Shown: positions 7,487-27,739 of the stretch, piece after piece
Layout: every line of letters starts with the position of its first letter
Numbering within the stretch: the first letter of the stretch is position 1
Assembly: GCA_965224465.1 (NCBI GenBank)
Contig: OZ245049.1
Coordinates: forward strand, 2,130,001 to 2,162,000
Source: Flavobacteriaceae bacterium
GTDB taxonomy: Bacteria > Bacteroidota > Bacteroidia > Flavobacteriales > Flavobacteriaceae
Direction: 5' to 3'
DNA length: 32,000 nucleotides
Notes under the pieces: model-generated
What the model saw: the letters and a program-made list of their open reading frames with translations, nothing else
What the model was told of the DNA's origin: nothing
Databases searched by the model: none
Translations under genes and position numbers: made by a program

Positions 7487-8059
7487 TGAATTTCTTAAAA
7501 GAAAATCAAAAGTCTCAAAGTAAGGTAAACTCCAATTTGGTCTATAGTCAAGAAAGCTACCTCCATCATATTCTTTATCATCTAAAGAATAGTAATACCA
7601 GTAATCATCAGATTTAAACCGATATTCAGGTTCATATCGTTTTGTGTATATTAAATAATGTATTGTAGGTGTTTTTTTAAAAAAAAGAAAAACTCGATTT
7701 ACACTAAATTCATATAAGTTATTATTATACGTAGTTTCTGTATAATAGAACCCTTTTTTTATTAAATATTTTGAAATTGAAATTATATCACTATCATTTG
7801 TGATTTTTTCAATTTCAGTTAGGTTAATGCGACAATAATTATCAGTTTTTAATTTGTTTACACGATCATAATTTTTAATAGAAAATGATTTAATTTTATC
7901 TAAATATCCTGTGTTATAGACTTCGGTATATATTTCACCATATTGATGTCTATTCTGATACACTTTATCGAATTTTATTTTTTTGTATTGAACATATATA
8001 CCTAAAAAAAACAAAGCAGATAACAGTGTAACGATTGTATTTTTCTTATTAATTTTCAT
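7457..8059 (-). CDS. membrane-anchored immunity candidate for the 426-aa effector; 3' end replaced by the IS256 insertion
   Basis: N-terminal TM helix (IVTLLSALFFLGIYV). The start overlaps the effector stop (TAATG). The last 10 codons (GTVNSTLSE + stop, 7457-7486) are IS256 sequence. Reading across the TSD restores the original tail ...FLLRNSSYTLKK*. Confidence 0.6.
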   Translation of the reverse strand: MKINKKNTIVTLLSALFFLGIYVQYKKIKFDKVYQNRHQYGEIYTEVYNTGYLDKIKSFSIKNYDRVNKLKTDNYCRINLTEIEKITNDSDIISISKYLIKKGFYYTETTYNNNLYEFSVNRVFLFFKKTPTIHYLIYTKRYEPEYRFKSDDYWYYYSLDDKEYDGGSFLDYRPNWSLPYFETFDFLLRNSGTVNSTLSE

Positions 8060-9339
8060 TAATCTTTATTTATTTCTATTTCATTGGTAGTCAAGTTACC
8101 GTTAAAACTATATATAATTGGAACATAAGTTATAAAAGGCTTATATCCTCTTAAATGCTGAAGTATATACCAACAAATAAATTCTTCATTCTTTCTTATA
8201 TAATCTTTTAAAATATCTCCAGAATCTAAACCAAAATGGTCAGATATTTCTAATCTAAATTTTCCTTTATAAGAATTGTTATCAAAATAAAATTCAGTTA
8301 GAGATATATCATAAGCTTGTGTTCCATCAATTGAAACACCAAGACCACCAAATTTATCTGGGTATTTAAGGCTGTTAAGTTCCTGTAAACCTTTAATCCC
8401 TAAAACATCAGGATTACCTCCGGATTTTTTTTCATACTCTTTTCTTAAAAATTGATTTTTAGTGTTTTTAACCTTTAAATTAAATATGCTATTAGTATTT
8501 TCTTTTATTGCATTTTTCAATAACGGAGAAAAACCATTTATAAAATCTTTTGTTCTTTGATGATCTGAAACAGCATTTGTTAATCTAATATCTTGGTATT
8601 TGCTGCTTGTATCAATGTTTTTCTTAAAGTAATCAATCATGCTATGTAAATTGTCATCTAGTACTCCTAGTGCCCAATCATCGAGGTCATACTTAAGAAT
8701 CTCAAATAATTTATCATTTGAATATTCACTATATTCTTTAATAACATCCATTGCATAATTAACTCTTGAGTCTTTATCCACAACATCAACACTCTTACCT
8801 ATGTCGTCAAACCCTTTTTCTAAAGCAGTCTTTAATCTCGTTTTCTCTTTTGGATAGTCAATACCCAAGTTTTTTATATCTTGTCTAGTGCAGTTTTTTC
8901 CATTAGTATCATAACAAACACCCGCTCTTTTAACAGAGCGAGCAATTATCATTGGTAAATTAAGTATATTTACTTCTACAAAAACATCCTTATGAGGTAG
9001 GCCCCCTGCATAAGCGTATATCTTAAATTTTTCTTTCGGTTTCTCCGTTTTTATCTTAACTTTTAGTGTATCACCGTCTAGTTCTCCTCCCGAAAAAAGC
9101 TTATACGATTTACAATGGTCATCTTTATCATAGGAGATAGCCCAGTTAATTTTTTTGGGATTGACATTATTATTTCTTAAAGTAGCAACATAAATGTACT
9201 CTTTTTCTTTTTCTATATATTCTAACTTATTGTTAACTGTGTCAAAAGGCCCTTCTACTTTAACAACTACTCTTACAACCTTAGGCAGTTTAATCGTAGT
9301 TTTAGTATTTGGATACCCTTTTATTATTACTGTTGCCAT
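8059..9339 (-). CDS. T6SS-type effector: shared N-terminal 128-aa module plus DUF3289-like C-terminal toxin domain
   Basis: 426 aa. The N-terminal ~128 aa are almost identical to ORF 19287..19952. The C-terminal DHFGLD ... WYILQHLRGYKPF motif is shared with ORF 18559..19197. The start lies 2 nt after the ext2 stop. Confidence 0.65.
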   Translation of the reverse strand: MATVIIKGYPNTKTTIKLPKVVRVVVKVEGPFDTVNNKLEYIEKEKEYIYVATLRNNNVNPKKINWAISYDKDDHCKSYKLFSGGELDGDTLKVKIKTEKPKEKFKIYAYAGGLPHKDVFVEVNILNLPMIIARSVKRAGVCYDTNGKNCTRQDIKNLGIDYPKEKTRLKTALEKGFDDIGKSVDVVDKDSRVNYAMDVIKEYSEYSNDKLFEILKYDLDDWALGVLDDNLHSMIDYFKKNIDTSSKYQDIRLTNAVSDHQRTKDFINGFSPLLKNAIKENTNSIFNLKVKNTKNQFLRKEYEKKSGGNPDVLGIKGLQELNSLKYPDKFGGLGVSIDGTQAYDISLTEFYFDNNSYKGKFRLEISDHFGLDSGDILKDYIRKNEEFICWYILQHLRGYKPFITYVPIIYSFNGNLTTNEIEINKD

Positions 9340-9341: not shown

Positions 9342-9848
9342 TTAATTTTCTTGTAAAATTGCTTTTAATGGGATGGATTCAATATCGTTAGTGATTTGAA
9401 CTTCTAACGTATCGTTTTCTAGTTTTATTCCATTATGTTCATAATCTAATTTCTGATCATCTAAGTTAAACTTAAACGTTTTCCCCACAGCGTTGCTACT
9501 TTCTATTACGAGCATAATTTCTTCATCAACATCAATATCATTTTTTTCAAGTTCATTCCCCTCTAAATCTTCTATATGATATTTATTGATCTCTGGTTCA
9601 TCATTTAAAACTGTTGGTTCAACAGTATCTTCCTTAAAAGTTTCTCTCCAAGAGGCAGAATACACACCAAACGAGTTAGAATCTTCTACACCAGCACAGG
9701 TAATTTCTAAAGTTTCCGTCATTGGATCTGAGCCTGTAGAAGAAAAATTGGTTTTCCAATTTACAAGATGACAGTCATAGAAAAATATTTTTCTTGTTTT
9801 CCCTCCCAGAATAAATATTGCTTTTAATGGAGTCGTTACATTTATCTG
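9342..9848 (-). pseudogene. tssD: 5'-truncated tssD (from about codon 72) fused to C-terminal extension type 2
   Basis: The frame reads ...ILGGKTRKIFFYDCHLVNWKTNFSSTGSDPMTETLEITCAGVEDSNSFGVYSASWRETFKEDTVEPTVL, as in the full hcp genes, then a different 84-aa tail. It is open upstream to 9848. No start codon before the internal ATG at 9722 (track ORF 9342..9722). Confidence 0.75.
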
Positions 9849-10534
9849 TCAAATATAATATCTCCAAATAAATTAATTTCAAACTCTTTTTTAATAGAAA
9901 ACAACAAGTTAAACTCATTTGTTTTCTTGTTGTATTTTCTAACAAAATAAGTGTTGTTTTTTACTGTTTTTAAAAATTTTACATTTTTTAATTCATCTAT
10001 TCTATGATTGGTTTCTTTCCATGTTTTTCCATAATCACTAGAGTAATAAGTAACGTTTTTATCAAAGTCATAACATTCTAAAATTCCACTATTGATTGAA
10101 AGAGATTCATTTGAAAGGTTTCTATTAAAAGGTAAAATTTTCTCTATGTTTTTTTTGCTCCAATTACTACCATTATCAGTACTTATATATAAATATTGAG
10201 GAGACGTATCACCATCTGAATTCTTTTTAGAAACAAAAGAGATTGTTTCTTTAATTGTACCTAAGCCATCAAAGATATTTTCATATTCATTGAGGTTAAA
10301 CATTTTTATACTCCATGTTTTTCCTGCGTCATTTGAGATAAATAAATAAGGATTTATTGTTGTGAAAATAATTAAATCACCTTTTTCAATAACACCAGAC
10401 ATTCCTTGTATTTCATATATCTTACTAATAGCATAGTTATTCCATTCATATCTAAACAATCCATATATAAAAATACAGATAAGTATAATTACCATGGTTA
10501 CTATCGTAATTACCATTTTATATCTATTTTTCAT
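9842..10534 (-). CDS. membrane-anchored BNR/Asp-box repeat protein (immunity candidate for the NodB effector)
   Basis: N-terminal TM helix. Three SxDxGxTW-type Asp boxes (SNDAGKTWS, STDNGSNWS, SSDYGKTWK). The start is 1 nt after the deacetylase stop. Confidence 0.6.
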   Translation of the reverse strand: MKNRYKMVITIVTMVIILICIFIYGLFRYEWNNYAISKIYEIQGMSGVIEKGDLIIFTTINPYLFISNDAGKTWSIKMFNLNEYENIFDGLGTIKETISFVSKKNSDGDTSPQYLYISTDNGSNWSKKNIEKILPFNRNLSNESLSINSGILECYDFDKNVTYYSSDYGKTWKETNHRIDELKNVKFLKTVKNNTYFVRKYNKKTNEFNLLFSIKKEFEINLFGDIIFDR

Positions 10535-11315
10535 TTTAATAGTTACTTATAACATCAAAGTTATAGTTTTTCTTTTTAAGTTTTTTTATGAGTGCTTTTA
10601 GTTTGTCAGCTTCATTATTTCTAAAAGCTCTATCATGCATTAATAAAACAATTTTATTTTGTTTTTGAGAATTATCATATTCGAACCACCAGTGAGATGA
10701 AACATCTTCAATTTTATCAAAAACATCATCTGGTGAATCAGTAAGTTTATCAAAATCTTTGTATTCGTCAGAATAAAAATCTATAAAAGGATGCATTTCT
10801 GATTCATTACTCCAATTTAATGTATTGTTTGCTGCTTTTGTTTTAACTTGCTTAACTGCTTCATCATGTGCCTCAAAAGACATACTCCATTCTGTGTCCC
10901 ATCCATAAATAACATACTCTTTTTGGTGTAATAAATCGGCTTCGTCTAATGTATCCATATTGTTATCACTATCAGTAATTTGTATTTTAGGGTATCGCCA
11001 AGTGTTTCGCCCAGGGAATCTTGCTAATTTAATCTGATTACCTCCTAATAATTTATCAGTTTTTCTAAAATCTTCAAGAACACTTCTTCGTTCAAATGTC
11101 CCATCAGGTTTCTTACCTATTTTTAATCCCTCATTATAATAGTGTTTATAGAAATCATTTGCGTGGGAATAACTGTGATTAGCAATTTCATGATTTTCTT
11201 TTATTTCATTCAAAAGGGTTTCCTTTTCATCATTGCCGTAATGTATTCCATAATTAACAATATTGATGCCTGTTAAGAAAAACGTAGCTCTCACTCCTGT
11301 TTCTTTTAATACTTT

Positions 11316-12583
11316 GGTTCTACCACGATTTGTGTGGGTATAAATCTAAACCTCCATTAAAAAACAGTATTGCACTTCTAAAATTCACGAAAGTCCTGTA
11401 GCCTTTACCAATAGATTTTATTTCTTGTATTTTACCATTTAGTCTTTCTGCCATTGCATTAGAAGCAGTCTCAACCATTGCATTACACACCCCTTCTATA
11501 TGGTTATTAAACATCCTAGCAACCTTTATAATTTCTTTAATTTTTGTTTCCAAAACACTTGCTCCCCATTTGATAAAAAGACCTAAAGCAACTTTCAAGG
11601 ATGGACTTCTAAATATATTTTTAAAATTTTCTTTAGCTAACCATGCTTTACTTGCTTGATAATTTGCTTCTTGTATTTTGTCAAATAATACTCTTTGTTT
11701 ATCCGTTAAGTTTTCTTTATTTTTAAGCAATACAAATCTACTATTTTTAAGACCTTCTTCTTTTTTCACTTCACGTCTGCGAACTTTATCTATAGCATCA
11801 TTTAAGTACTTTACTAAGTGAAATCGATCATGGACAACTTTCGCTTTTGGAAAAACTTCTTTTACTGACGATAAATAGGCCTTCCACATGTCAATAGAGA
11901 CAGTCTCTACTTCATCTCTATTTATCTCATTTACAATCTTTTCAAGTAAAATTTTAGTCTCTTTTTTAGTCCTACCTTCTGCAACATCAATTACAATTCC
12001 TGTACTCGGATCACTAACTACAGTCACATAGTTATGCCCCTTTTTGAAAGCTTTTTCATCTATACTTAGATGAGAAAATCTTTGGTTTTCTGACCTATTA
12101 GAAAGCCCTCTTTTTACAGAAGTATGTATGATTCGGTTTACAATATTAAAGCCACAACGTAATAGTTTAGCCGTTTGAGTTTGATTTCTTGTTGCTTTCA
12201 ATAAGTCTATAGTTAGCCTTTCAAATAGGTAAGTATGACGATAAAAATTACTAGCCCATGGTACCGTTATCGTTTTAACGCCTTTAGTTGACTTAACTCT
12301 TGGGACTTTACAATTAATGTAGGTTTTGAATTGTAAGGTGTCTAAATGACGCCATCTACGAGTACTTCTATGATCATAAATACTACACAACTCTTCTGTG
12401 TCTGGACAAGATGCTCTTGTTGGTAGATAGTCTATAAATATGTCTATTTCTGAATCTAGATAATTAACTTTTACATCACAAACCTTCCAATCTGTTCCTA
12501 AATTTAATAGTAACTCAAACAGTTTTGTTGAAAACATCTTTTTGAGGTAAAGATACTAATTCCACAACATTCGTGGTAGAACC
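11316..12583 (-). mobile_element. ISL3-family insertion sequence (1268 bp) with 8-bp TSD
   Basis: IRs GGTTCTACCACGATTTGTGTGG and (reverse complement) GGTTCTACCACGAATGTTGTGG. TSD AATACTTT at 11308-11315 and 12584-12591. Confidence 0.9.
11320..12537 (-). CDS. ISL3 family transposase
   Basis: 405 aa. Has an RRWRHLDT zinc-finger-proximal region, SIDEKAFKKGHNYVTVV, SIDMWKAY, HDRFHLVKYL and MAERLNGKIQEIK motifs, as in ISL3 transposases. Confidence 0.9.
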   Translation of the reverse strand: MFSTKLFELLLNLGTDWKVCDVKVNYLDSEIDIFIDYLPTRASCPDTEELCSIYDHRSTRRWRHLDTLQFKTYINCKVPRVKSTKGVKTITVPWASNFYRHTYLFERLTIDLLKATRNQTQTAKLLRCGFNIVNRIIHTSVKRGLSNRSENQRFSHLSIDEKAFKKGHNYVTVVSDPSTGIVIDVAEGRTKKETKILLEKIVNEINRDEVETVSIDMWKAYLSSVKEVFPKAKVVHDRFHLVKYLNDAIDKVRRREVKKEEGLKNSRFVLLKNKENLTDKQRVLFDKIQEANYQASKAWLAKENFKNIFRSPSLKVALGLFIKWGASVLETKIKEIIKVARMFNNHIEGVCNAMVETASNAMAERLNGKIQEIKSIGKGYRTFVNFRSAILFFNGGLDLYPHKSW

Positions 12584-12722
12584 AATACTTTTAATATTTC
12601 CTTTGTTCCTGGCTGAATTCCATCATCAAATGTAAGAAAAACAGTTTTTTTCTTAGACACCTTAGGCAGTTTAATCGTAGTTTTAGTATTTGGATACCCT
12701 TTTATTATTACTGTTGCCATAA

Positions 12723-12998
12723 TTAATTTTCTTGTAAAATTGCTTTTAATGGAATGGATTCAATATCGTTAGTGATCTGAACTTCTAACGTATCGTTTTC
12801 TAGTTTTATTCCATTATGTTCATAATCTAATTTCTGATCATCTAAGTTAAATTTAAACGTTTTCCCCACAGCGTTGCTACTTTCTATTACGAGCATAATT
12901 TCTTCATCAACATCAATATCATTTTTTTCAAGTTCATTCCCCTCTAAATCTTCTATATGATATTTATTGATCTCTGGTTCATCATTTAAAACTGTTGG
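12723..12998 (-). pseudogene. orphan extension-2 fragment (no hcp core, no start codon)
   Basis: Frame PTVLNDEPEINKYHIEDLEG...IPLKAILQEN*, preceded directly by an in-frame TGA (12999-13001). Near-identical to 9342..9617 and 19955..20230. Confidence 0.75.
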
Positions 12999-13090
12999 TC
13001 ATAATTACTCAGCTTTCAGTGCAACAAGACGATAAAATTAGTCGAAGCCCACGAACCTACGTAATTTCAATCGCTAGGTATTAGGCAACG
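12999..13090. repeat. inter-cassette element S, copy 1
   Basis: 92 nt, by eye identical to 20231..20322. Contains the imperfect inverted repeat CGATTGAAATTA / TAATTTTATCG (read on the - strand). Diverged relatives at about 5955-6043 and 24095-24175. Confidence 0.6.
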
Positions 13091-13663
13091 TTATAATATT
13101 CCTAATTTTTTTTTAAATTCTTCTGTTATGTAGTGTTCTAGTTCATCGAAAGTAAAGAATACTTCATATAATGAAAAATCATTATCAGAGTCTCTTAAAT
13201 TTTCCACTAACCCATTCGTGAATTTTATTCCTAATACTTTTTTTTGATTTTTAGTGATAATCCATGGCACTGGAATTTCACTAATGGTAAACTCATCAGG
13301 GTATTCTTTATTTATTCTTTTTTGAATTGTATTTACAAGTTTATTATCTGTATTATTAAAGAAATCTTTAATTGTTATCAATTCTGAATTATCAATATTA
13401 AAATTATATATGTAAGAATATCCTGTTAGATATGCTGTATATGTTTCGATGTCTAATTGAATACTAACAATATGCTTATTAAGGAAATGAATTGCATAAT
13501 TACTATTATTAAATGAATAGCAATTATTTGAACAACATTTAGTATTCAAATAATCAGTAAAATTATTAATGGTCTTTTTTAAACTAATTGAATCAATTAT
13601 GTTTGCTTTATTAATAAAGACAAACTCTTCAACTTCCTTTTTTATAATATAATTAAGAATATC

Positions 13664-15078
13664 GGTTGTGTAATTTAAACTCTGTCTGCTTGTTTTTTTC
13701 TACGTTTTAAAATAGTTCGATTTTCTCTTCATAAGGCTGCTTTAAAAATCGAACTATTTTAAAATGAGCCCCAGCGGCTAGCGTCACGAATTGCTTCCGT
13801 TTTTATGTAAATCCAACGTTATTCGATCTTCAAATTTAATATATAATTGTTGAATTGTCAAGCACCAATTATGTAAAGGGTTTGTCCATTTTTTTTCGAT
13901 ATTTTTTGTTGCTAAGTAAACAAGCTTTAATAGTGCCATATCACTGGTAAAAGCCCCTTTTGTTTTAGTTACTTTTCTTACCTGTCTATGAAAACCTTCT
14001 ACTGCATTTGTTGTGTAAATTATTTTTCTGATAGGTTCTGTATACTGAAAAAACTGAGATAACTCTTCCCAATTACGGTTCCAACTTTCTAAAACTACAG
14101 GGTGTTTTTCTCCCCATTTTTCTTCTAATTTCAATAACTCCAACTCAGCAATATCCTTATTAACAGCCTTGTAAACAAGCTTTAAATCTCGAATAAATTC
14201 TTTTTGGTCTTTGGAAGCTATATACTTTAAAGAATTACGAATTTGATGAACAATACACTTTTGAATTTGTGTTTTAGGAAATACACTCAAGATAGCTTCT
14301 GAAAACCCTTTTAAGTTGTCTGTACAGGCAATTAGGATATCCTTAAGCCCTCTGTTATTAAGGTCTGTCAATACTTGAAGCCAAAAATTTGCGCCTTCAC
14401 TTTCTGAAATATACATTCCTAAAACCTCTTTGATCCCTTCTTTATTTACTCCTAAAACATTGTAAAGTGCTTTGTGTTGTATTTTACCGTCTACTTTTAC
14501 CTTGTAATGCATAGCGTCAAGCCAAACAATGCAGTACATCTGTTCTATTGGACGACTTTGCCATTGTTTTATATCTGGTATGATCTTATCTGTAATTTGA
14601 CTTAAAACAGTGTGTGATATATCTGTATCATACATCTCTTTTATATGACCAGAAATATCGCGTAAGCTCATTCCTAGGCCGTATAATCCAATGATCTTAT
14701 CTGATAAATTATCTGCTAAAATGGTTTGACGCTTTTTTATCAGAACAGGCTCGAAACTACTATTTCTATCCGCTGGCGTGCTTATTTCAAAACTACCAAT
14801 ACTAGTTTTAACAGTCTTTTTGCCCTTTCCATTACGTTTATTCCCTTTAGAACGTTCCTCTTCACTAAGGTGTGATTCCATTTCTGCTTCCAATGCTTTC
14901 TCAAGAAATTGTTTCATTAAAGGAGCAAAGGCACCTTCTTTTCCGAATAAACTTTTTCCTGATAATAATTGATCCAATGCCTTTTTTTCAATGTTGGCTA
15001 ACTCGTCTTTTGTCATGTTTTCTGTTTGAATAAAGTTAATACTTTTTTTTATTCAGACAGAGTTGAGTTTACAGTCCC
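13664..15078 (-). mobile_element. IS256-family insertion sequence, copy 2 (1415 bp) with 8-bp TSD
   Basis: Same ends as copy 1. TSD AGAATATC at 13656-13663 and 15079-15086. The intact paralog has a single AGAATATC at about 20888-20895. Confidence 0.95.
13784..15016 (-). CDS. IS256 family transposase (copy 2)
   Basis: 410 aa. Differs from copy 1 at two residues (C55R, Y304H). Confidence 0.95.
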   Translation of the reverse strand: MTKDELANIEKKALDQLLSGKSLFGKEGAFAPLMKQFLEKALEAEMESHLSEEERSKGNKRNGKGKKTVKTSIGSFEISTPADRNSSFEPVLIKKRQTILADNLSDKIIGLYGLGMSLRDISGHIKEMYDTDISHTVLSQITDKIIPDIKQWQSRPIEQMYCIVWLDAMHYKVKVDGKIQHKALYNVLGVNKEGIKEVLGMYISESEGANFWLQVLTDLNNRGLKDILIACTDNLKGFSEAILSVFPKTQIQKCIVHQIRNSLKYIASKDQKEFIRDLKLVYKAVNKDIAELELLKLEEKWGEKHPVVLESWNRNWEELSQFFQYTEPIRKIIYTTNAVEGFHRQVRKVTKTKGAFTSDMALLKLVYLATKNIEKKWTNPLHNWCLTIQQLYIKFEDRITLDLHKNGSNS

Positions 15079-15284
15079 AGAATATCAGATGATTTTTTTG
15101 AATCAAAATTAAAAAACGGAAGATTATAATTACTGAGGATTTCTCCATCACATACTATTGTATCTTTTATAGAACTAACTACAATTTTTGTTTTATTAGT
15201 AGTATTAATTTGACTTTTACAAGAAGTGGTCAATAATACTACTAGCAGAAAAATAATATAATTATTTATCTTTTTCATCTTCGT

Positions 15285-16559
15285 TTATTTTAGTTGTATT
15301 GGTTTTAATTTTAAATCTGAAGTAATTTCAAAAGGGATAACATTAATACCTTTGACGGTTGTTTTAATAGGATTTTGTTTGCGTAATTCTTTTAATAGGA
15401 TTTCTGCTTTTGGGTCTTTTAAATTTACAGTTACTGTTTTTCCTTTCACTTTAGTTTTAACCAATATATCTTTTGAAATAGCTAACAAGATATTTTCAAT
15501 TTCATCTTTTTGCTCTTTTGTTCCAGTCTTATGAATCTCTTTGTAATGTTTGTAAACTTTAAAAGCTTCATCGTCTTTTGCTTTTAATGTATAATCTTTT
15601 CTTTCTTCTATACCATTGGTTCCTCCATTAATTCTTTTGGACACTTTTTTTATACTATCTTTATTGGAATATTCATAAACCTTTCCATTGCCAATCATCC
15701 AATACCAAAGTGCAGATTGAGTAGCATAGATTGGATTTGCTTTGTCTTCTATTTTTTTTGAGTTTATAGCTTTAGTGAAATCTAAATTTACTGAAGCATC
15801 ATTAGAAAAAGGATGTTTTTTTCTGTAATCAGAAAAAATAGTGTAATTATTCTTTCCTGTTAATTGAATGATACCTCTACCTAGAAAATTGTAACCATCA
15901 TCACCTCCATTATGTCCCAAGTCTTTTCTGTTTGAATATTTCCTATTGGCTATTTCTTTTTCATTGTGAGAATGAGATAATACTTGAACATAAATAGTTT
16001 TCTCTTCGTTAAGGTAAATTTTTTCTTGATATTTCTTTTTTTTAGTATAACCATAAATATATGCTGGATTTAGCTTATCACAATTAGCATATTTATCTTT
16101 TTTATCTTTATCCTTTTTTTTATCAGCTTCTTTTCTGTTATCTATAATTTTGAATTTATCTTTATATGTCTTAATATTAGCGTCAGTAAGTTTTATTAGT
16201 TCGCTCTCTGTATAGTATTTCTTAAGACTAGATGGCTTATAAGCCATATCTTCTTTTAGAGTATAAAACTTTTTACTTTCAACTAGACATTGAGAAATAA
16301 AATGAGCTTTACGTAAGCAAGTATCTAGTTTATAAGTTTTTCTGTAGTCATTGAGGTACTTTATGATTTTTTTTGCTAAAATTTCGTTTACATTAGGTTC
16401 AATGTGTTTTATTTGCTCTATTGTTATTTCTTCTTTGCAGTAAGGGCAAGGTTCTGTTTTTTTTATGGTAAGAGGTGTTTCTTTGTACGGAAGTAACTCA
16501 CCGTTGTAATATACCCTTGGTATATAAGTTATTGTTTTAAGCTTTTTCTTTTCAGCCAT
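15285..16559 (-). CDS. GH19/COG3179-type (chitinase/lysozyme-like) peptidoglycan hydrolase effector, copy 1
   Basis: 424 aa. Pattern ITIEQIKHI-P-...LNDYRKTYKLDT-LRKAHFISQCLVESKKF...YSNRKDLGHNGGDDGYNFLGRGIIQLTGKNNY...ATQSALWYWM...RINGGTNGIEERK matches the phage/T6SS GH19-like lysozyme family. The start is 4 nt after the hcp stop. Confidence 0.75.
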   Translation of the reverse strand: MAEKKKLKTITYIPRVYYNGELLPYKETPLTIKKTEPCPYCKEEITIEQIKHIEPNVNEILAKKIIKYLNDYRKTYKLDTCLRKAHFISQCLVESKKFYTLKEDMAYKPSSLKKYYTESELIKLTDANIKTYKDKFKIIDNRKEADKKKDKDKKDKYANCDKLNPAYIYGYTKKKKYQEKIYLNEEKTIYVQVLSHSHNEKEIANRKYSNRKDLGHNGGDDGYNFLGRGIIQLTGKNNYTIFSDYRKKHPFSNDASVNLDFTKAINSKKIEDKANPIYATQSALWYWMIGNGKVYEYSNKDSIKKVSKRINGGTNGIEERKDYTLKAKDDEAFKVYKHYKEIHKTGTKEQKDEIENILLAISKDILVKTKVKGKTVTVNLKDPKAEILLKELRKQNPIKTTVKGINVIPFEITSDLKLKPIQLK

Positions 16560-16563: not shown

Positions 16564-17232
16564 TTATTGTTTTAAAATTACTTCTCCATTTTCGTTAACG
16601 ATTCCTTTAAGTTCTATATTGTTTGTAGGATCATCATCTGCATCTTCTAATATTATTTTTAGTTCTTCACCTTCTTCTATATCTTTTACTTTTAAAAACA
16701 GTTGAGAATTAGAACTAATTTCAGCTTCTTTTATAGAGTTACCTTCTTCGTCTTTCCATTCTGTTTTTAGGATTTTAGGATTTTTTTCAATTTCTTGCTC
16801 TCTCTCTAATACTGTTGGTTCAACAGTATCTTCTTTAAAAGTTTCTCTCCAAGAGGCAGAATACACACCAAACGAGTTAGAATCTTCTACACCAGCACAG
16901 GTAATTTCTAAAGTTTCCGTCATTGGATCTGAGCCTGTAGAAGAAAAATTGGTTTTCCAATTTACAAGATGACAGTCATAGAAAAATATTTTTCTTGTTT
17001 TCCCTCCCACAATAACGGAATTAATATGTAATACTAGCTGTTTTGTTTGCCTGGAGGAAAAAGACCATTCCGTAAGATTTATGTCTTTTCTAGTTTCTAT
17101 AATTAGTTTAAAACCTAGAAATATAGGTGTCTGTGAGGGTCTGCCGTTAGGGTTTGCTCCTTGATTAAATCTGATCGTAAACAATAGTGCGTTTACTTCT
17201 TTTCCATCTATTATTAATGTTGCTTTTACCAT
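16564..17232 (-). CDS. tssD: T6SS-iii tube protein TssD (Hcp) with ~85-aa C-terminal extension type 1, copy 1
   Basis: 222 aa. Residues 1-~135 follow the Bacteroidetes TssD pattern (KATLIIDGKE, GRPSQ, IIETRKD, DPMTETLEI, SASW). The acidic beta-rich tail is not found in canonical ~130-aa TssD. Confidence 0.75.
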   Translation of the reverse strand: MVKATLIIDGKEVNALLFTIRFNQGANPNGRPSQTPIFLGFKLIIETRKDINLTEWSFSSRQTKQLVLHINSVIVGGKTRKIFFYDCHLVNWKTNFSSTGSDPMTETLEITCAGVEDSNSFGVYSASWRETFKEDTVEPTVLEREQEIEKNPKILKTEWKDEEGNSIKEAEISSNSQLFLKVKDIEEGEELKIILEDADDDPTNNIELKGIVNENGEVILKQ

Positions 17233-17294
17233 CGTTATTTTTTTCGTTTTAGGAAGGTGTTTTTAATGTTGCCAATAACCAGTGTCCAACATTG

Positions 17295-18116: not shown

Positions 18117-18578
18117 TTATTTTTCGTTTAAAGTAATTGTATCTTTAATGTTTTCAGGGTAGGTTAAATACCAAATATTAGGGTTACTTTCGGATCTTAA
18201 ATAACTTAAAGTCTCCCAATAGTCTTCTTCGCATCTTTCAATTATACTTTCAACATTTTTGAGATGTTTATAGTTCGCAAAATATCCTCTTGTGCAAGAG
18301 TTGTTTTCGAAAAACACAAAACCTAGTTCATTCACAGTAGTATTTGCAACAAGTATTTCTTTTATTCTTTTTCTTGCAAAAAATAAAAGAATAGAATCAT
18401 TATCTGTAGAGCTATAAGATAAACTATTTATTAAATAGGTCTCATAGATTGCTCCATTAGTTTGTTTTTCAGATAATATCTTTTTAGCATTAAAACTGTT
18501 ATCACAACTTATTAGAATAGTCATTAAGAAAAAAAAGCCTATTCTAATAATTATATTTTTATATTTTGTTTCTCTCAT
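18117..18578 (-). CDS. lipoprotein immunity candidate for the frameshifted DUF3289-like effector
   Basis: 153 aa. Signal peptide plus lipobox (MTILISC). The start overlaps the effector 3' end by 20 nt. Confidence 0.6.
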   Translation of the reverse strand: MRETKYKNIIIRIGFFFLMTILISCDNSFNAKKILSEKQTNGAIYETYLINSLSYSSTDNDSILLFFARKRIKEILVANTTVNELGFVFFENNSCTRGYFANYKHLKNVESIIERCEEDYWETLSYLRSESNPNIWYLTYPENIKDTITLNEK

Positions 18579-19952
18579 ATTTACCTTTATTTAGATTACC
18601 AGTAAATTTTTTTGTAAATTTTATATGAGTAATAAATGGTTTATAGCCTCTTAAATGTTGTAGTGTAAACCATGAAGAAAAAATGACTCTAGCACCTTTA
18701 AATAAGTTAAAGTATTTTTCTAAATCAGATTTATCTAATCCAAAGTGATCCCATAAAGTTACATCATACTTTATGTTGTATATATTATTTTCTAATTTAT
18801 ATTCTGTAACCTCAACTTTAGTAGCCCAAATATCATTTAATGCAATCCTTTGTCCTGCCAGTAAGTCTTCAAAAGAATCAAATTGTGGACGCATAAAGAA
18901 AATTTCTTTTCTTGTTGTTTTACTTATCTGAGTAGTTGTTTTTCCTTTTTTCCTACGATTTTTCAAATTGCTTGTTCCCATAAAGTCAATTTCATTTTCA
19001 ATTAGTCCTGACAGTTTCCCTTTGCTGTTTTTTAGTTTTTCAGCAATATAATCTTCTACTTCTTTGCAATAAGTAAGAGTAGATTGATGGTTTTTAATTG
19101 CATTTGTAAGTATATTAGATCGATAAACTCCTCCCTTATTTCTTTTAAATTTGGAAATCATATCTTTTATGTTAATTTCTAATTTCCCTTCAGCCATTAA
19201 GAGTACAACACCTTTTTCAAATTTTACGAAAAGCTCATTATCTGTGTAATTTTCGTTAAGATGTTTTATCTCTTCTCCAGCAGTATCTACAATAAGTTCT
19301 CAACTTTTAAGTACCATGGTACATTTTTGTAATCTATTTTATATATCTCTTCTTTACTATATAATGTTTTATCATATTTATCATCTTTATTGCTTAATGT
19401 AGAAGTAAAAAAAGTATTTGAAATATAATCTTTTTTTAGTTTATTTATAAAGTTATCAGGGTAAACTCTTCTAACTATATTTTCACCCTTTCCATATGTT
19501 AGGTCCTCTGCTATATCTGTTCCCTCATTATTTAATCCAGGCATCCTGAACATATCTATACAAATTGGTAAATTAAGTATATTTACTTCTACAAAAACAT
19601 CCTTATGAGGTAGGTTCCCTGCATAAGCGTATATCTTAAATTTTTCTTTCGGTTTCTCCGTTTTTATCTTAACTTTTAATGTATCACCGTCTAGTTCTCC
19701 TCCCGAAAAAAGCTTATACGATTTACAATGGTCATCTTTATCATAGGAGATAGCCCAGTTAATTTTTTTGGGATTGACATTATTATTTCTTAAAGTAGCA
19801 ACATAAATGTACTCTTTTTCTTTTTCTATATATTCTAACTTATTGTTAACTGTGTCAAAAGGCCCTTCTACTTTAACAACTACTCTTACAACCTTAGGCA
19901 GTTTAATCGTAGTTTTAGTATTTGGATACCCTTTTATTATTACTGTTGCCAT
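18559..19952 (-). pseudogene. DUF3289-like effector paralog split by a frameshift (track ORFs 19287..19952 and 18559..19197)
   Basis: The upstream ORF ends at TAG 19287-19289. The downstream frame is already open from 19299, 34 codons before its ATG. One indel within 19290-19299 would fuse them into a ~460-aa protein built like the 426-aa paralog. Confidence 0.7.
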
Positions 19953-19954
19953 AA

Positions 19955-20230
19955 TTAATTTTCTTGTAAAATTGCTTTTAATGGGATGGATTCAATATCG
20001 TTAGTGATTTGAACTTCTAACGTATCGTTTTCTAGTTTTATTCCATTATGTTCATAATCTAATTTCTGATCATCTAAGTTAAACTTAAACGTTTTCCCCA
20101 CAGCGTTGCTACTTTCTATTACGAGCATAATTTCTTCATCAACATCAATATCATTTTTTTCAAGTTCATTCCCCTCTAAATCTTCTATATGATATTTATT
20201 GATCTCTGGTTCATCATTTAAAACTGTTGG
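19955..20230 (-). pseudogene. orphan extension-2 fragment (no hcp core, no start codon), second copy
   Basis: Same breakpoint as 12723..12998: an in-frame TGA at 20231-20233 immediately precedes CCA ACA GTT. Confidence 0.75.
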
Positions 20231-20322
20231 TCATAATTACTCAGCTTTCAGTGCAACAAGACGATAAAATTAGTCGAAGCCCACGAACCTACGTAATTTC
20301 AATCGCTAGGTATTAGGCAACG
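20231..20322. repeat. inter-cassette element S, copy 2
   Basis: By eye identical to 12999..13090. Confidence 0.6.
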
Positions 20323-21087
20323 TTATAATATTCCTAATTTTTTTTTAAATTCTTCTGTTATGTAGTGTTCTAGTTCATCGAAAGTAAAGAATACTTCATA
20401 TAATGAAAAATCATTATCAGAGTCTCTTAAATTTTCCACTAACCCATTCGTGAATTTTATTCCTAATACTTTTTTTTGATTTTTAGTGATAATCCATGGC
20501 ACTGGAATTTCACTAATAGTAAACTCATCAGGGTATTCTTTATTTATTCTTTTTTGAATTGTATTTACAAGTTTATTATCTGTATTATTAAAGAAATCTT
20601 TAATTGTTATCAATTCTGAATTATCAATATTAAAATTATATATGTAAGAATATCCTGTTAGATATGCTGTATATGTTTCGATGTCTAATTGAATACTAAC
20701 AATATGCTTATTAAGGAAATGAATTGCATAATTACTATTATTAAATGAATAGCAATTATTTGAACAACATTTAGTATTCAAATAATTAGTAAAATTATTA
20801 ATGGTCTTTTTTAAACTAATTGAATCAATTATGTTTGCTTTATTAATAAAGACAAACTCTTCAACTTCCTTTTTTATAATATAATTAAGAATATCAGATG
20901 ATTTTTTTGAATCAAAATTAAAAAACGGAAGATTATAATTACTGAGGATTTCTCCATCACATACTATTGTATCTTTTATAGAACTAACTACAATTTTTGT
21001 TTTATTAGTAGTATTAATTTGACTTTTACAAGAAGTGGTCAATAATACTACTAGCAGAAAAATAATATAATTATTTATCTTTTTCAT
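20323..21087 (-). CDS. lipoprotein immunity protein for the GH19-like effector (intact copy); possibly RsiV/DUF3298-like
   Basis: 254 aa. Signal peptide plus lipobox (LLTTSC). Sits 6 nt downstream of the effector. The central ETYTAYLTGYSYIYNFNIDNSELITIKDFF resembles the DUF3298 core; this is a low-certainty, by-eye call. Confidence 0.7.
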   Translation of the reverse strand: MKKINNYIIFLLVVLLTTSCKSQINTTNKTKIVVSSIKDTIVCDGEILSNYNLPFFNFDSKKSSDILNYIIKKEVEEFVFINKANIIDSISLKKTINNFTNYLNTKCCSNNCYSFNNSNYAIHFLNKHIVSIQLDIETYTAYLTGYSYIYNFNIDNSELITIKDFFNNTDNKLVNTIQKRINKEYPDEFTISEIPVPWIITKNQKKVLGIKFTNGLVENLRDSDNDFSLYEVFFTFDELEHYITEEFKKKLGIL

Positions 21088-21093
21088 CTTCGT

Positions 21094-22368
21094 TTATTTT
21101 AGTTGTATTGGTTTTAATTTTAAATCTGAAGTAATTTCAAAAGGGATAACATTAATACCTTTGACGGTTGTTTTAATAGGATTTTGTTTGCGTAATTCTT
21201 TTAATAGGATTTCTGCTTTTGGGTCTTTTAAATTTACAGTTACTGTTTTTCCTTTCACTTTAGTTTTAACCAATATATCTTTTGAAATAGCTAACAAGAT
21301 ATTTTCAATTTCATCTTTTTGCTCTTTTGTTCCAGTCTTATGAATCTCTTTGTAATGTTTGTAAACTTTAAAAGCTTCATCGTCTTTTGCTTTTAATGTA
21401 TAATCTTTTCTTTCTTCTATACCATTGGTTCCTCCATTAATTCTTTTGGACACTTTTTTTATACTATCTTTATTGGAATATTCATAAACCTTTCCATTGC
21501 CAATCATCCAATACCAAAGTGCAGATTGAGTAGCATAGATTGGATTTGTTTTGTCTTCTATTTTTTTTGAGTTTATAGCTTTAGTGAAATCTAAATTTAC
21601 TGAAGCATCATTAGAAAAAGGATGTTTTTTTCTGTAATCAGAAAAAATAGTGTAATTATTCTTTCCTGTTAATTGAATGATACCTCTACCTAGAAAATTG
21701 TAACCATCATCACCTCCATTATGTCCCAAGTCTTTTCTGTTTGAATATTTCCTATTGGCTATTTCTTTTTCATTGTGAGAATGAGATAATACTTGAACAT
21801 AAATAGTTTTCTCTTCGTTAAGGTAAATTTTTTCTTGATATTTCTTTTTTTTAGTATAACCATAAATATATGCTGGATTTAGCTTATCACAATTAGCATA
21901 TTTATCTTTTTTATCTTTATCCTTTTTTTTATCAGCTTCTTTTCTGTTATCTATAATTTTGAATTTATCTTTATATGTCTTAATATTAGCGTCAGTAAGT
22001 TTTATTAGTTCGCTCTCTGTATAGTATTTCTTAAGACTAGATGGCTTATAAGCCATATCTTCTTTTAGAGTATAAAACTTTTTACTTTCAACTAAACATT
22101 GAGAAATAAAATGAGCTTTACGTAAGCAAGTATCTAGTTTATAAATTTTTCTGTATTCATTGAGGTACTTTATGATTTTTTTCGCTAAAGTTTCGTTTAC
22201 ATTAGGTTCAATGTGTTTTATTTGCTCTATTGTTATTTCTTCTTTGCAGTAAGGGCAAGGTTCTGTTTTTTTTATGGTAAGAGGTGTTTCTTTGTACGGA
22301 AGTAACTCACCGTTGTAATATACCCTTGGTATATAAGTTATTGTTTTAAGCTTTTTCTTTTCAGCCAT
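21094..22368 (-). CDS. GH19/COG3179-type peptidoglycan hydrolase effector, copy 2
   Basis: 424 aa. Four aa differences from copy 1 (I60T, D71E, T75I, A274T). Confidence 0.75.
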   Translation of the reverse strand: MAEKKKLKTITYIPRVYYNGELLPYKETPLTIKKTEPCPYCKEEITIEQIKHIEPNVNETLAKKIIKYLNEYRKIYKLDTCLRKAHFISQCLVESKKFYTLKEDMAYKPSSLKKYYTESELIKLTDANIKTYKDKFKIIDNRKEADKKKDKDKKDKYANCDKLNPAYIYGYTKKKKYQEKIYLNEEKTIYVQVLSHSHNEKEIANRKYSNRKDLGHNGGDDGYNFLGRGIIQLTGKNNYTIFSDYRKKHPFSNDASVNLDFTKAINSKKIEDKTNPIYATQSALWYWMIGNGKVYEYSNKDSIKKVSKRINGGTNGIEERKDYTLKAKDDEAFKVYKHYKEIHKTGTKEQKDEIENILLAISKDILVKTKVKGKTVTVNLKDPKAEILLKELRKQNPIKTTVKGINVIPFEITSDLKLKPIQLK

Positions 22369-22372
22369 GATT

Positions 22373-23041
22373 TTATTGTTTTAAAATTACTTCTCCATTT
22401 TCGTTAACGATTCCTTTAAGTTCTATATTGTTTGTAGGATCATCATCTGCATCTTCTAATATTATTTTTAGTTCTTCACCTTCTTCTATATCTTTTACTT
22501 TTAAAAACAGTTGAGAATTAGAACTAATTTCAGCTTCTTTTATAGAGTTACCTTCTTCATCTTTCCATTCTGTTTTTAGGATTTTAGGATTTTTTTCAAT
22601 TTCTTGCTCTCTCTCTAATACTGTTGGCTCAACAGTATCTTCCTTAAAAGTTTCTCTCCAAGAGGCAGAATACACACCAAACGAGTTAGAATCTTCTACA
22701 CCAGCACAGGTAATTTCTAAAGTTTCCGTCATTGGATCTGAGCCTGTAGAAGAAAAATTGGTTTTCCAATTTACAAGATGACAGTCATAGAAAAATATTT
22801 TTCTTGTTTTCCCTCCCAGAATAACGGAATTAATATGTAATATTAGCTGTTTTGTTTGCCTGCAGGAAAAAGACCATTCCGTAAGGTTTATGTCTTTTCT
22901 AGTTTCTATAATTAATTTAAACCCCAGAAATACGGGGATTTGTGAAGGTCTGCCATTAGGATTTGCTCCTTGATTAAATCTGATCGTAAACAATAGTACG
23001 TTTACTTCTTTTCCATCTATTATTAATGTTGCTTTTACCAT
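22373..23041 (-). CDS. tssD: TssD (Hcp) with C-terminal extension type 1, copy 2
   Basis: 222 aa. Six aa differences from copy 1, all within the first 75 residues. Confidence 0.75.
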   Translation of the reverse strand: MVKATLIIDGKEVNVLLFTIRFNQGANPNGRPSQIPVFLGFKLIIETRKDINLTEWSFSCRQTKQLILHINSVILGGKTRKIFFYDCHLVNWKTNFSSTGSDPMTETLEITCAGVEDSNSFGVYSASWRETFKEDTVEPTVLEREQEIEKNPKILKTEWKDEEGNSIKEAEISSNSQLFLKVKDIEEGEELKIILEDADDDPTNNIELKGIVNENGEVILKQ

Positions 23042-23102
23042 CGTTATTTTTTTCGTTTTAGGAAGGTGTTTTTAATGTTGCCAATATCCACGTCCAACAT
23101 TG

Positions 23103-23110
23103 CAAAGCTA
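23103..23110 (-). promoter_or_regulatory. candidate -7 promoter box TAGCTTTG upstream of hcp copy 2
   Basis: TAnnTTTG on the - strand, about 55 nt upstream of the ATG at 23041. Confidence 0.45.
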
Positions 23111-23608
23111 CCATCATTGAGTATCCATTTAACCTACAATGCAGCATTACGTTTATTATCCAGACACATATATCTAGTAAGCAACTATCAAAATTACATA
23201 AAATAGTTATATACAATAATTATTCTTTGATTGTATTTTCCTGTTTTTTTTGATACCTAAAAACCGTTACCTCAATATGGGAAATGCTTCAAAAAAGATA
23301 AAATTTAGAACTAGACACTTGTTTTTAGCTCTTTTTAACAGATAAAATTACAAATCGTTTACTCACAATGCTGAATTCTCTACACCTATTATTGAAAAGA
23401 AAGGAAACAATTTATATGAGCCATGTTGCTTTTTAGACAACAATTTAGTTAAACTTGATCTTTTAAAGCAGTAGTAATTGAACCGTGGCAACCACAATAA
23501 AACCCAACTAAAATTAGAAATACACACTGTTTTTTACAAAACAAATGAAATTATTTTATTTTTATAAATGCCCCGAAAACGATTGAACAATGCAGATTAC
23601 TGATGCTG

Positions 23609-23876: not shown

Positions 23877-24062
23877 AAAAATGATACAGGAAAATGTATG
23901 TGTAGCCAGAGCATGTAAAAAACCATAACATTATTGCTGTATTTTTTTTGTTTTATAAAAGCCTGCTTAACCATTACGCTTAATGACTGTATGGCTTAAC
24001 GCTGACGACACACGATAAAATCGTGCGTTAGCGATGGCGGTTATTCGTGCGACAGCGAGGGC
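23877..24062. repeat. repeat R, copy 3 (hairpin degenerate)
   Basis: See copy 1. Followed at 24095-24175 by an S-like sequence. Confidence 0.8.
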
Positions 24063-24237: not shown

Positions 24238-25326
24238 CTAGTGAATATAAGAAAATTTAATAATTGTTTTCCCTTGAGAGTCTACTACTGCTGTTAACTG
24301 TTTATATTTATTATAAATATAAAAATGCTCTTTAATTACTTCGGGTGTTGGGTTTACAAATAAATCCGTTTCTTTTACTCCAATAAAATTTTCATCTTTA
24401 AAGATATAATCTGTTGAAATAATTTTATTAGGATATTCTTTGTTAACAGTTACATCTACTGTGTTTTTAATTTGTATCATTGTAAACGTTTCTTCGGTCC
24501 TAAATCGGGAGTATTTCTCATTAACACAACGCTTCTTATCATCATACATATATTCTATCACTTCTTTAGAAACACCCTCTTCGCGTTGCGTATATATTTT
24601 CTTAGTCCGTAACAAATTATCATAAAAATCATAAAATGATATAATTTGTAAACCATCTTTATTACACTGATTTACATTAAAAAGTTGCCCTTTGGCATCG
24701 AAAACATATTCTCTAGTAAAATTATATAGTTCATTAATTCCTGTATGTTTAGATCTTTTTAAATTGTCCTGCTCATATATATATTCAACCGATTTATATG
24801 GTTCGTTTTCAAAACCTGAATAAATTTTCCGTTTTAAAATTCTTCCTAGATCATCAAATTCTCTTTTTTCATTTGCGATTTCTGTAATTTGTCCGGTTCC
24901 ATTGAACTTTAATGCGCTTGGATACCCTAAATTATTTTTAGGAATTGTTTCTACAACTTCATTTGCTGTTGCACTTGTTCCAAATTCTTCTCCATTATTA
25001 ATAATTGTTCCTGCAGGGATTATTAGAAGATCTCGGTAACAATAATAACCGTTTTTCAAATTAAACATATAATCTCTGCCAGTGTTAATTGGCGCTAATT
25101 CTCCTGTTATATTGTACTTTTTTTCTATTCTTGTATCTAAATTCAATTCATTTTTCAATGTCCCTTTATAATTGTAAAATTTAACTTTATTTCCTTCTTT
25201 TTTATAGGCTAACTGTTTGTTGTTATAATATGCACTGTCTTTCATTTTTTGAGTAGCACTATCTTTAAGCCTTGTATTACAATTACTTAATTGAAGTGTA
25301 ATTAATATTAGAATTAGATTCCTCAT
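24238..25326 (-). CDS. large lipoprotein with repeated Y/G-rich beta-hairpin-like motifs (orphan immunity candidate)
   Basis: 362 aa. Signal peptide plus lipobox (LQLSNC). Preceded by a toxin-tail remnant and a copy of the hcp promoter region. Confidence 0.6.
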   Translation of the reverse strand: MRNLILILITLQLSNCNTRLKDSATQKMKDSAYYNNKQLAYKKEGNKVKFYNYKGTLKNELNLDTRIEKKYNITGELAPINTGRDYMFNLKNGYYCYRDLLIIPAGTIINNGEEFGTSATANEVVETIPKNNLGYPSALKFNGTGQITEIANEKREFDDLGRILKRKIYSGFENEPYKSVEYIYEQDNLKRSKHTGINELYNFTREYVFDAKGQLFNVNQCNKDGLQIISFYDFYDNLLRTKKIYTQREEGVSKEVIEYMYDDKKRCVNEKYSRFRTEETFTMIQIKNTVDVTVNKEYPNKIISTDYIFKDENFIGVKETDLFVNPTPEVIKEHFYIYNKYKQLTAVVDSQGKTIIKFSYIH

Positions 25327-25395: not shown

Positions 25396-25426
25396 TGCTT
25401 ATTGCTAATACCCCTATCCAACATTG

Positions 25427-25434
25427 CAAAGCTA
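25427..25434 (-). promoter_or_regulatory. third copy of the hcp -7 box TAGCTTTG, now upstream of an orphan immunity gene
   Basis: 25396-25745 is homologous to 17233-17615 and 23042-23415. Homology to the hcp 5' UTR stops about 30 nt downstream of the box. Confidence 0.45.
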
Positions 25435-25706
25435 TCATCATTGAGTATCCATTTAGCCTACAATACAGCATTACGTTTATTATTATTCAAATATACATAT
25501 ATCTACTAAGCAACTATCAAAGCTACATAAAATAGTTATATACAATAATTATTCTTTGATTGTATTTTCCTGTTTTTTTTGATACCTAAAAACAGTTACC
25601 TCAATTATGAGGCAATGCTTCAAAAAAGATAAAATTTAGAACTAGACACTTATTTTTAGCTGTTTTTAACAGATAAAATTACAAATCGTTTACTCACAAC
25701 GCTGAA

Positions 25707-25913
25707 TTATCTACACCGATTTATTGAAAAGGCAGGAAACAATTTGTACAGCTCATCATAATCTAAGTCTATACGTTTATCTAGTGGATATTCGCATGCC
25801 CGAATTAACTTCATGTAATGGTTTACCGTATTTAGAGAAACACCTACCCCACTCCCGATAGAACAGTTGCTTTCTCCATTTCTATGTAATGTAATATTTT
25901 GTTTTAAATCCAT
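25707..25913 (-). pseudogene. fragment encoding an IstA-like N-terminal helix-turn-helix, inside a ~180-bp insertion
   Basis: 68-aa ORF. GESNCSIGSGVGVSLNTVNHYMKLI resembles the HTH at the N-terminus of IS21 IstA. The block at about 25747-25925 is absent from the paralogous regions at about 17620 and about 23415. Confidence 0.3.
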
Positions 25914-26001: not shown

Positions 26002-26176
26002 CCAATAAGGAGAAGGAAAATGCATCTGTATCCAGAACATGTAAAAAACCACAACATTATTGCTGTGGTTTTATTGTTTCACAAAAGCCTGCTTAACCAT
26101 TACACTTAATAGCTGTGTGGCTTAACGTTGACAACACACGATAAAACACGTTAACGACGACGGTTATTCGTGCGCC
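26002..26176. repeat. repeat R, copy 4
   Basis: See copy 1. Has the best-formed hairpin: AAAACCACAAC-ATTATT-GCTGTGGTTTT. Confidence 0.8.
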
Positions 26177-26194
26177 AGCTGGGTTTTCTTTTTA

Positions 26195-26597: not shown

Positions 26598-26660
26598 TTA
26601 ATAAATTAAGCTTCTGTCAGTTCTTAAAATGCCCCATTGCCATTTGAAAAAATTATTGAT
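26598..26660 (-). pseudogene. remnant of a metallopeptidase-toxin 3' end (NNFFKWQWGILRTDRSLIY*)
   Basis: 17 of 20 residues identical to the C-terminus of ORF 27131..27601. Overlaps the stop of the 158-aa lipoprotein gene. Confidence 0.7.
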
Positions 26661-27129: not shown

Positions 27130-27130
27130 T

Positions 27131-27601: not shown

Positions 27602-27739
27602 AGCAATTAAATCGGCTTTAAAGGAGTCTGAATTTCTCCTGCCAATATTTGAAGAGGAATTAATCGCTAGGTGCTCTAAGCCGTTTTTTCTTTCTTCATT
27701 ATTATTTATTTATCGATTCTTTATATTTATTAATTAGTA

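Follow-up and report, generated by a model that had tools for sequence, protein, structure and literature searches.

A TssD paralogue of a Flavobacteriaceae bacterium with a C-terminal domain that may recognise the leader of its downstream effector

C-terminal adaptor extensions, such as TTR-like domains, are found on VgrG and PAAR proteins, and orphan toxin-immunity arrays are found in Rhs and CdiA systems. For the T6SS (type VI secretion system), adaptor domains located at the C-terminal ends of core proteins have been suggested in broad terms (bioRxiv 10.1101/2021.10.07.463556). Lumen loading and minor-Hcp heteromers were resolved only recently (PMC13323088, PMC13213661), and the matching of large effectors to the tube is still being worked out. 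[quoted passage not shown] According to a steric argument, one ring has room for no more than a single extended Hcp (PMC13323088). Evolved Hcp-toxin fusions are known in Bacteroidales, GA2 (PMC4714493). Here, a 32,000-nucleotide stretch of a Flavobacteriaceae bacterium (assembly GCA_965224465.1, contig OZ245049.1, positions 2,130,001 to 2,162,000 of the forward strand), hereafter the window, was analysed. The gene of interest, hcp-ext1, encodes a TssD core that continues into a linker and a C-terminal domain, ext1, and is followed by an effector gene and an immunity gene (Table 1). In the reading that we favour and hold to be fairly probable, hcp-ext1 encodes a cargo-dedicated T6SS-iii TssD paralogue whose portable tail would recognise the leader of the downstream effector, the cassette being swapped at the linker.

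As for the minor Hcps of B. fragilis GA3 (PMC13213661), several divergent Hcp paralogues are present per genome and the hcp gene lies directly upstream of an effector-immunity pair. The GA3 Hcps, however, measure 15-16 kDa, carry no extension and hold their specificity in the Hcp body, whereas here a C-terminal domain has been added; GA3 modules are located in variable regions of the T6SS locus, whereas those described here are scattered orphan islands. With evolved Hcps, or Hcp-ET (PMC4714493), the protein shares an N-terminal Hcp followed by a C-terminal extension, but its 72-aa tail lacks a toxin signature, the toxin is encoded by a separate gene and the effector gene sits between hcp-ext1 and the immunity gene. 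With the adaptor extensions of VgrG and PAAR it shares a small, non-toxic C-terminal domain on a secreted structural part, paired genetically with cargo. Unlike TTR-like adaptors, ext1 matches neither a TTR nor a described adaptor in fold or sequence, and its carrier is a hexameric tube protein, with a stoichiometry problem that is absent in spike proteins. Finally, the window resembles Rhs and CdiA arrays in that a full-length gene is followed by 5′-truncated copies with short homology and alternative C-terminal, toxin and immunity modules; the displaced unit, however, is a tube-protein linker plus adaptor domain with a separate effector gene rather than the tip of a single toxin. Effector-recognising minor Hcps and Hcp-toxin fusions were already known; what appears to be new is a tail domain on a TssD that tracks the effector leader. 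In the literature searched, which was incomplete, no paper was found that describes the ext1 domain or extended TssDs in Flavobacteriaceae.

The identity of the core was determined by profile and structure searches. An earlier note on this DNA, made from the letters alone, had read the gene as a Bacteroidetes-type TssD with a non-toxic C-terminal extension and with an effector and an immunity gene close behind, and this was borne out. The Pfam TssD model (PF17642) matched residues 2-116 of the 222-aa protein (E=4.8e-23, 81.9 bits, cut-off 25.8). The five conserved landmarks that the note had placed in residues 1 to ~135 were all found in order (KATLIIDGKE, GRPSQ, IIETRKD, DPMTETLEI and YSASW), the last one closing at W128. 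In the AlphaFold2 model of the whole protein (mean predicted local distance difference test (pLDDT) score 79.3), the Hcp core, residues 1-128, was confident. Following a Foldseek search, the core model matched 8gra_B (E=1.5e-8, TM-target 0.81) as well as 6bdc (Flavobacterium johnsoniae Hcp1) and 7yw0 (B. fragilis Hcp5), all of them T6SS-iii Hcps; 6bdc_A was also matched by sequence (E=1.8e-5). Residues 1-128 are, by model and profile, a T6SS-iii TssD with a predicted Hcp beta-barrel fold. At least nine members of the TssD cluster are encoded on the 5.24-Mb source contig (P0001, P0066, P0004, P0006, P0007, P0008, P0056 and P0067, with fragments P0065 and P0068). In exact sequence look-ups, P0056 was matched on a separate 10.6-kb contig alone, and P0001, P0006 and P0008 had no match.

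The tail extends 94 residues beyond W128, against the ~85 first estimated. Its ext1 domain was modelled with a pLDDT of ~80-90 within the full-length protein. Pfam and NCBIfam searches with the extension alone and with the whole protein returned TssD as the sole family and none for the extension. No toxin or enzyme signature was found in the 72-aa acidic beta domain (Pfam and PDB fold search), and its Foldseek matches included no TTR-fold structure. The linker that precedes it contains a V-E-P/A-T motif (within 22616-22657, residues 129-142), which is conserved inside this linker of predicted disorder; VEPT, VEAT or IEPT was present in 30 of 65 homologues. The motif may serve as a hotspot of recombination, as a docking strand or as a site of cleavage.

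The gene directly downstream encodes the effector. Using a family profile against the PDB, matches were obtained to 8xcl_A (E=1.7e-19), 9ms7 (PWe2 endolysin; E=8.6e-19) and 4ok7 (E=1.9e-13), and the effector is predicted to be a GH19-like peptidoglycan glycoside hydrolase. The match to the catalytic part sets in near residue 45 and leaves a 44-aa N-terminal leader; this leader (~45 aa) is probably a beta-hairpin. The hcp-ext1 stop codon lies 4 nt ahead of the effector ATG, as noted before (TAA-AATC-ATG), a spacing from which translational coupling of the two genes may be inferred. Homologues of the immunity candidate (25-33% identity, invariant S19-C20 lipobox) stand behind the effector in loci L001-L004.

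The linkage between tail and cargo was followed across loci. The ext1 domain occurs on Hcp cores that are just 33-46% identical to the core in the window (L001, from Aquimarina, L002, L003 and L039). In L004 it sits on a closer core, and in L038 its carrier is a PAAR-like protein (DUF4280). A homologue of the GH19-like effector, with conserved leader, starts 2-5 nt after every ext1 Hcp (45-53% identity for the four full-length ones measured; 39-53% for the effector family when L038 is included). Among 40 loci and the window, matches to a hidden Markov model (HMM) of this effector family were limited to ext1 sources. Because ext1 consistently accompanies one effector family, the tail is probably a built-in cargo adaptor. 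Within one genome, P0001 and P0067 have the same core, with ext1 on one and ext2, a second tail type, on the other, and each precedes a different effector.

Similarities in extension, core and effector were compared by a Mantel test with Spearman correlation over 19 loci having a separate effector. Extension and effector residues 1-50 were correlated (rho 0.51, p=0.0005), core and effector residues 1-50 were not (rho -0.04, p=0.68), and for the extension versus the remaining effector rho was 0.04. With the core controlled for, extension and leader had a partial correlation of 0.58. L007 and L024 illustrate the pattern, with values of 0.92 for the extension, 0.97 for the leader and 0.27 for the toxin. 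The claim that extension type co-varies with cargo accordingly stands, with seven independent ext1 loci (one PAAR-like) and the Mantel test behind it, but in altered form: the extension tracks the leader of ~45-50 aa and not the toxin family. In B. fragilis GA3 the Hcp type segregates with effector type (PMC13213661), whereas here the extension tracks the effector leader and the core does not.

A separate carrier of the domain was found in L038 (GCA_947492285.1, CANLMU010000036.1), where positions 116-9685 form a VgrG island. It consists, in order, of VgrG, a 288-aa gene, the PAAR-like protein, two lipoprotein genes, a GH19-like effector, an immunity gene and a DUF3289 effector. In the PAAR-like protein, an ext1-like domain occurs twice, with 42% identity to ext1 (E=5e-13). 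The GH19-like effector is 39% identical to that of the window (E=1e-79) and the DUF3289 effector is 48% identical to the ext2 partner in the window (E=2e-142); each has an immunity-like gene with it. As two adaptor-like domains stand beside two effectors, the island suggests one adaptor-like domain per cargo.

The mechanism that we propose is as follows. The ext1 domain would recognise the ~45-aa N-terminal leader of the adjacent effector and tether the GH19-like effector to the tube for export, while the downstream lipoprotein would shield the producer cell. By estimate, the 49-kDa effector probably exceeds the space of a single Hcp ring. Since six extensions plus cargo would likewise exceed one ring, the protein is probably placed in a terminal ring or mixed with ordinary Hcp subunits, which agrees with the steric argument of PMC13323088 and the heterohexamers of B. 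fragilis (PMC13213661). Contact between extension and leader by strand complementation is speculation: the leaders resemble beta-hairpins, and the SpyCatcher match discussed below was non-significant. Recombination at the conserved linker would exchange linker, extension, effector and immunity gene together, as a single cassette; such swapping would explain the row of 5′-truncated orphan modules in the window.

Several points weigh against this proposal. Modelled by itself, the ext1 domain reached a pLDDT of only ~79, and its alignment was shallow. Its best match in the PDB fold search was SpyCatcher (E=0.66, TM 0.26), which is not significant, and BFVD gave no significant match, so no fold was assigned. 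The loci of the Mantel test are phylogenetically non-independent, and some were retrieved for carrying ext1. The region is rich in insertion sequences (IS) and some cassettes are decaying. Neither in the window nor in those flanks of relatives that were examined were T6SS core genes observed. Moreover, just 4 nt separate the 3′ end of the extension from the 5′ end of the effector, and co-inheritance could result from linkage alone; this objection is weakened, but still stands, because domain and effector in L038 are 1.9 kb apart.

The last point leads to the strongest alternative, which we regard as unlikely. In it, the domain would serve as a passive spacer or be left over from Hcp-toxin fusions that were split; it would travel with the effector only through adjacency in a single recombination block, while loading specificity would lie elsewhere (for example in the Hcp lumen, VgrG or a chaperone). 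An ext1-like domain does lie between Hcp and toxin in the 581-650-aa fusions of L009, L014 and L013 (local HMM), the gap between extension and effector is merely -11 to +12 nt in every locus, and the window array shows block-wise recombination. The two-gene arrangement is nevertheless kept across many genera, which argues against a recent split. Breakpoints recur at the borders of core and extension and of leader and toxin, with none between extension and leader. In L038, moreover, the same effector family is present although a different carrier bears the domain, at a distance of 1.9 kb and two genes.

Less probable still is a role after delivery, in which the domain binds the target (cell wall or carbohydrate), or caps or plugs the tube, and aids wall-degrading effectors instead of recognising them beforehand. 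Several partner genes do encode functions that degrade or modify the wall (GH19-like hydrolase, polysaccharide deacetylase, Amidase_2 and, with the domain inside it, an M23 peptidase), and the domain is small, acidic and beta, without an enzyme signature. The extension subtype, however, tracks the effector leader and not the catalytic domain, and no similar binding module is known in Pfam or the PDB. The least probable alternative, that the cassettes are non-functional remnants of a decaying IS-rich island or come from a phage-tail-like, non-T6SS system, draws on at least six IS-type transposase genes or fragments in 32 kb, on three of five modules being orphans without a full Hcp core, on two interrupted genes, on the T6SS core genes missing from the window and every examined flank and on one YQBQ/gpD-like carrier, but against it stand two full-length hcp-effector cassettes (98% identical, open reading frames (ORFs) intact, one with an intact immunity gene), the conservation of this arrangement in genera such as Aquimarina, Tamlana, Olleya and Psychroserpens, sequence and fold searches in which T6SS-iii Hcps ranked first and tube proteins of extracellular contractile injection systems lower, and the L038 island, where VgrG and a PAAR-like gene neighbour the same effectors.

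The distribution of the domain was examined as well. The earlier note had called the extension private and had called ext2 unrelated to it, and neither statement held. Of the 65 homologue clusters, 47 were 220-240 aa long with an aligned extension; those with a named source, from Tenacibaculum, Olleya, Tamlana, Psychroserpens and Aquimarina, bear the plain annotation TssD. A scan of one genome per species, using an alignment of 19 closer sequences as query, yielded 31 Flavobacteriaceae loci, of which a single genome had up to 6-7; relatives have 4-7 TssD loci per genome. By these homologues, the extension is the usual state of this TssD clade in (marine) Flavobacteriaceae. As for ext2, hhalign of the ext1 and ext2 domains with the shared linker removed aligned 48 columns (probability 82%, E=1.1e-5, score 30.6), while twenty column-shuffled control alignments scored at most 12.5, with E of at least 0.08. 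Similarly, an HMM of ext1-type domains matched ext2-type Hcps (E=7e-5 to 2e-3). The first three strands are common to both and the C-terminal half differs. On profile evidence, ext2 is a variant of the same domain family as ext1.

Whether the extension is a separate gene in relatives was verified as well. The only candidate was L037, in a metagenome-assembled genome (MAG) of Tannerellaceae, where the Hcp-extension gene (7653-8360) had been called as two. It was rejected since the reading frame is continuous apart from one in-frame TAA. The L037 gene is either a pseudogene or an assembly error, and it extends the family to Bacteroidales.

Carriers of the ext1-like domain were identified in two ways. 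Using phmmer with the single ext1 sequence against 1.84 billion representatives, 12 matches were obtained, about six of them real and the rest acidic low-complexity. Together with Pfam, these gave the TssDs P0189 and P0198, the PAAR-like DUF4280 protein P0191 (DUF4280 E=5.1e-20) with two copies of the domain, and the YQBQ/gpD-like (VgrG-like) spike protein P0197, behind which an Amidase_2 gene follows. A profile search with the domain in a set of 5.8 billion proteins gave two matches, a low yield for which the word filter is probably responsible. By local HMM, the domain was found at residues 24-75 of separate effectors in L007 and L024 and inside the M23-peptidase protein of L038, in addition to the fusions mentioned above.

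A wider claim is offered tentatively, and we are inclined to doubt it somewhat: the 72-aa tail may found an undescribed portable cargo-loading domain of the Bacteroidota T6SS, present on Hcp, PAAR-like and VgrG-like carriers and pairing with beta-hairpin leaders of effectors, possibly by strand complementation. If true, pairs of domain and leader would be a readable code predicting which protein leaves via which carrier, and this code could be rewired by cassette swaps at the V-E-P-T linker. It would give a simple genomic rule by which effectors could be found in marine Flavobacteriaceae, whose T6SS cargo is for the most part uncharted, would account for the Hcp dependence of effectors too big for the Hcp lumen and would supply a compact handle to engineer cargo delivery. 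The window also shows hcp-linked orphan cassettes, an arrangement so far tied to Rhs and CdiA toxins.

Table 1. Coordinates of the hcp-ext1 cassettes, the orphan modules and their parts in the window.
Feature	Coordinates	Strand	Basis or remark
hcp-ext1 copy A, 222 aa	22373..23041	minus	ORF
TssD core of hcp-ext1 copy A, residues 1-128	22658..23041	minus	Pfam TssD and AlphaFold2 model
Linker, residues 129-150 (22 aa), V-E-P-T motif inside	22592..22657	minus	residues 134-150 with pLDDT <50
ext1 beta domain, residues 151-222 (72 aa)	22376..22591	minus	five strands in AlphaFold2 model
Effector copy A, 424 aa (49 kDa)	21094..22368	minus	family profile against PDB
Immunity candidate copy A, 254-aa lipoprotein	20323..21087	minus	begins 6 nt past effector stop
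Conserved region upstream of both hcp-ext1 copies	23042..23465	minus	inside 98.1% repeat
hcp-ext1 copy B, 222 aa	16564..17232	minus	protein 97% identical to copy A, extension identical
Effector copy B	15285..16559	minus	ORF and repeat
Immunity copy B, split by IS256-like element	13091..15278	minus	pieces 15069..15278 and 13091..13549; transposase 13784..15016
Orphan 5′-truncated hcp (core residues 73-142) with ext2	9342..9814	minus	9606-9814 = 22616-22824, 99%
ext2-partner effector (DUF3289, 426 aa, leader MATVIIKGYPNTKTTIKLPKV) and 200-aa immunity candidate	7457..9339	minus	DUF3289 E=2.8e-17
Orphan ext2-only fragment starting in linker	12723..12999	minus	12651-12999 = 9271-9618, 98.6%
Leader and polysaccharide deacetylase effector (12556..12720 and 10536..11294), then immunity candidate 9842..10534	9842..12720	minus	split by ISL3-like transposase 11320..12537
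Orphan ext2-only fragment starting in linker	19955..20231	minus	19564-20231 = 8951-9618, 99.6%
DUF3289 effector variant, two ORFs (19287..19952, 18559..19197), and immunity candidate 18117..18578	18117..19952	minus	DUF3289 E=9.5e-19

By self-comparison, the window was resolved into five tandem minus-strand modules: two hcp-ext1/effector/immunity cassettes (20323-23465 and 13091-17657) and three orphans. The cassettes share a 2580-bp repeat that is 98.1% identical (15079-17657 = 20888-23465), and the recurrence of the gene as copy B, pointed out before, was confirmed. All three ext2 orphans are followed by effectors with the same leader, MATVIIKGYPNTKTTIKLPKV, attached to DUF3289, a DUF3289 variant or a polysaccharide deacetylase. 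Identity between the ext1 and ext2 genes stops at the swap junction, nt 22616/9606, right past the linker residues EPTVL. The statement that ext2 is attached to the same core applies within the window in a limited way, the core being truncated to residues 73-142 once and missing twice, but it does apply to P0067, an ext2 Hcp of full length (229 aa) from another part of the source contig, whose first 142 residues equal those of the copy at 16564..17232 but for one position.

IS elements occupy 3556-7424, 11320-12537, 13784-15016 and 28282-31982. They comprise two IS256-like elements with 99.7% identity along 1427 bp, an ISL3-like element, IS66 (tnpB, tnpC), an IS30-like element and IS21 (istB plus an istA fragment), and two of the elements disrupt one effector and one immunity gene.

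Among the relatives, the closest non-self locus was L004 (JBLWWJ010000015.1), with an Hcp-ext1 81% identical to that of the window and the same effector. It belongs to a MAG labelled Ancylomarina (Marinifilaceae), a placement that suggests either misbinning or a horizontally transferred cassette. The flanks of relatives show scattered orphan islands, one of them near Tle1-like and DUF2931 genes.

Members of the same TssD clade also occur as 501-650-aa Hcp-toxin fusions (L009, L012, L013, L014, L019, L021 and L034), a lipoprotein gene following each. The fusion toxins are zinc-metallopeptidase-like (HExxH) in L013, L021 and L034 and of no assigned type in the others. Evolved Hcps therefore exist in Flavobacteriaceae too. 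In L011, L025, L028 and L033, short TssDs (135-156 aa, no beta domain) precede effectors starting with MPxFIPLGIPxFNG, a pairing that looks like a separate mode without the extension.

Further repeats were detected between the genes. A ~340-bp upstream element is present at 17269-17605, 23078-23413 and 25402-25745. The third copy, 90% identical, precedes an ORF at 24238..25326 on the minus strand, which encodes an unrelated lipoprotein-like protein of 362 aa and gave no Pfam match. Each copy retains TAGCTTTG, located ~62 nt ahead of the hcp ATGs and ~100 nt ahead of the ATG of the third gene, and the element could be a common promoter or regulatory region. The Bacteroidetes -7 motif TANNTTTG was found 48 times in the window versus 57 expected; as it was not enriched, it was left unused as promoter evidence. 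A repeat of ~165 bp has five intergenic copies (85-91%; 5790-5942, 17743-17905, 23888-24056, 26014-26179 and 29627-29789) and may be a miniature inverted-repeat transposable element or an IS end.

Four small minus-strand ORFs (109-170 aa) at 26195-28252 had no family matches and may be orphan immunity genes; a 69-bp stretch there, 26599-26667, has 85.5% identity to 27139-27205. Finally, a housekeeping peptidase, which places the organism within Flavobacteriaceae, showed 84-90% identity to Flavobacteriaceae MAGs and ~70% to Polaribacter, Lutibacter and Aureibaculum.

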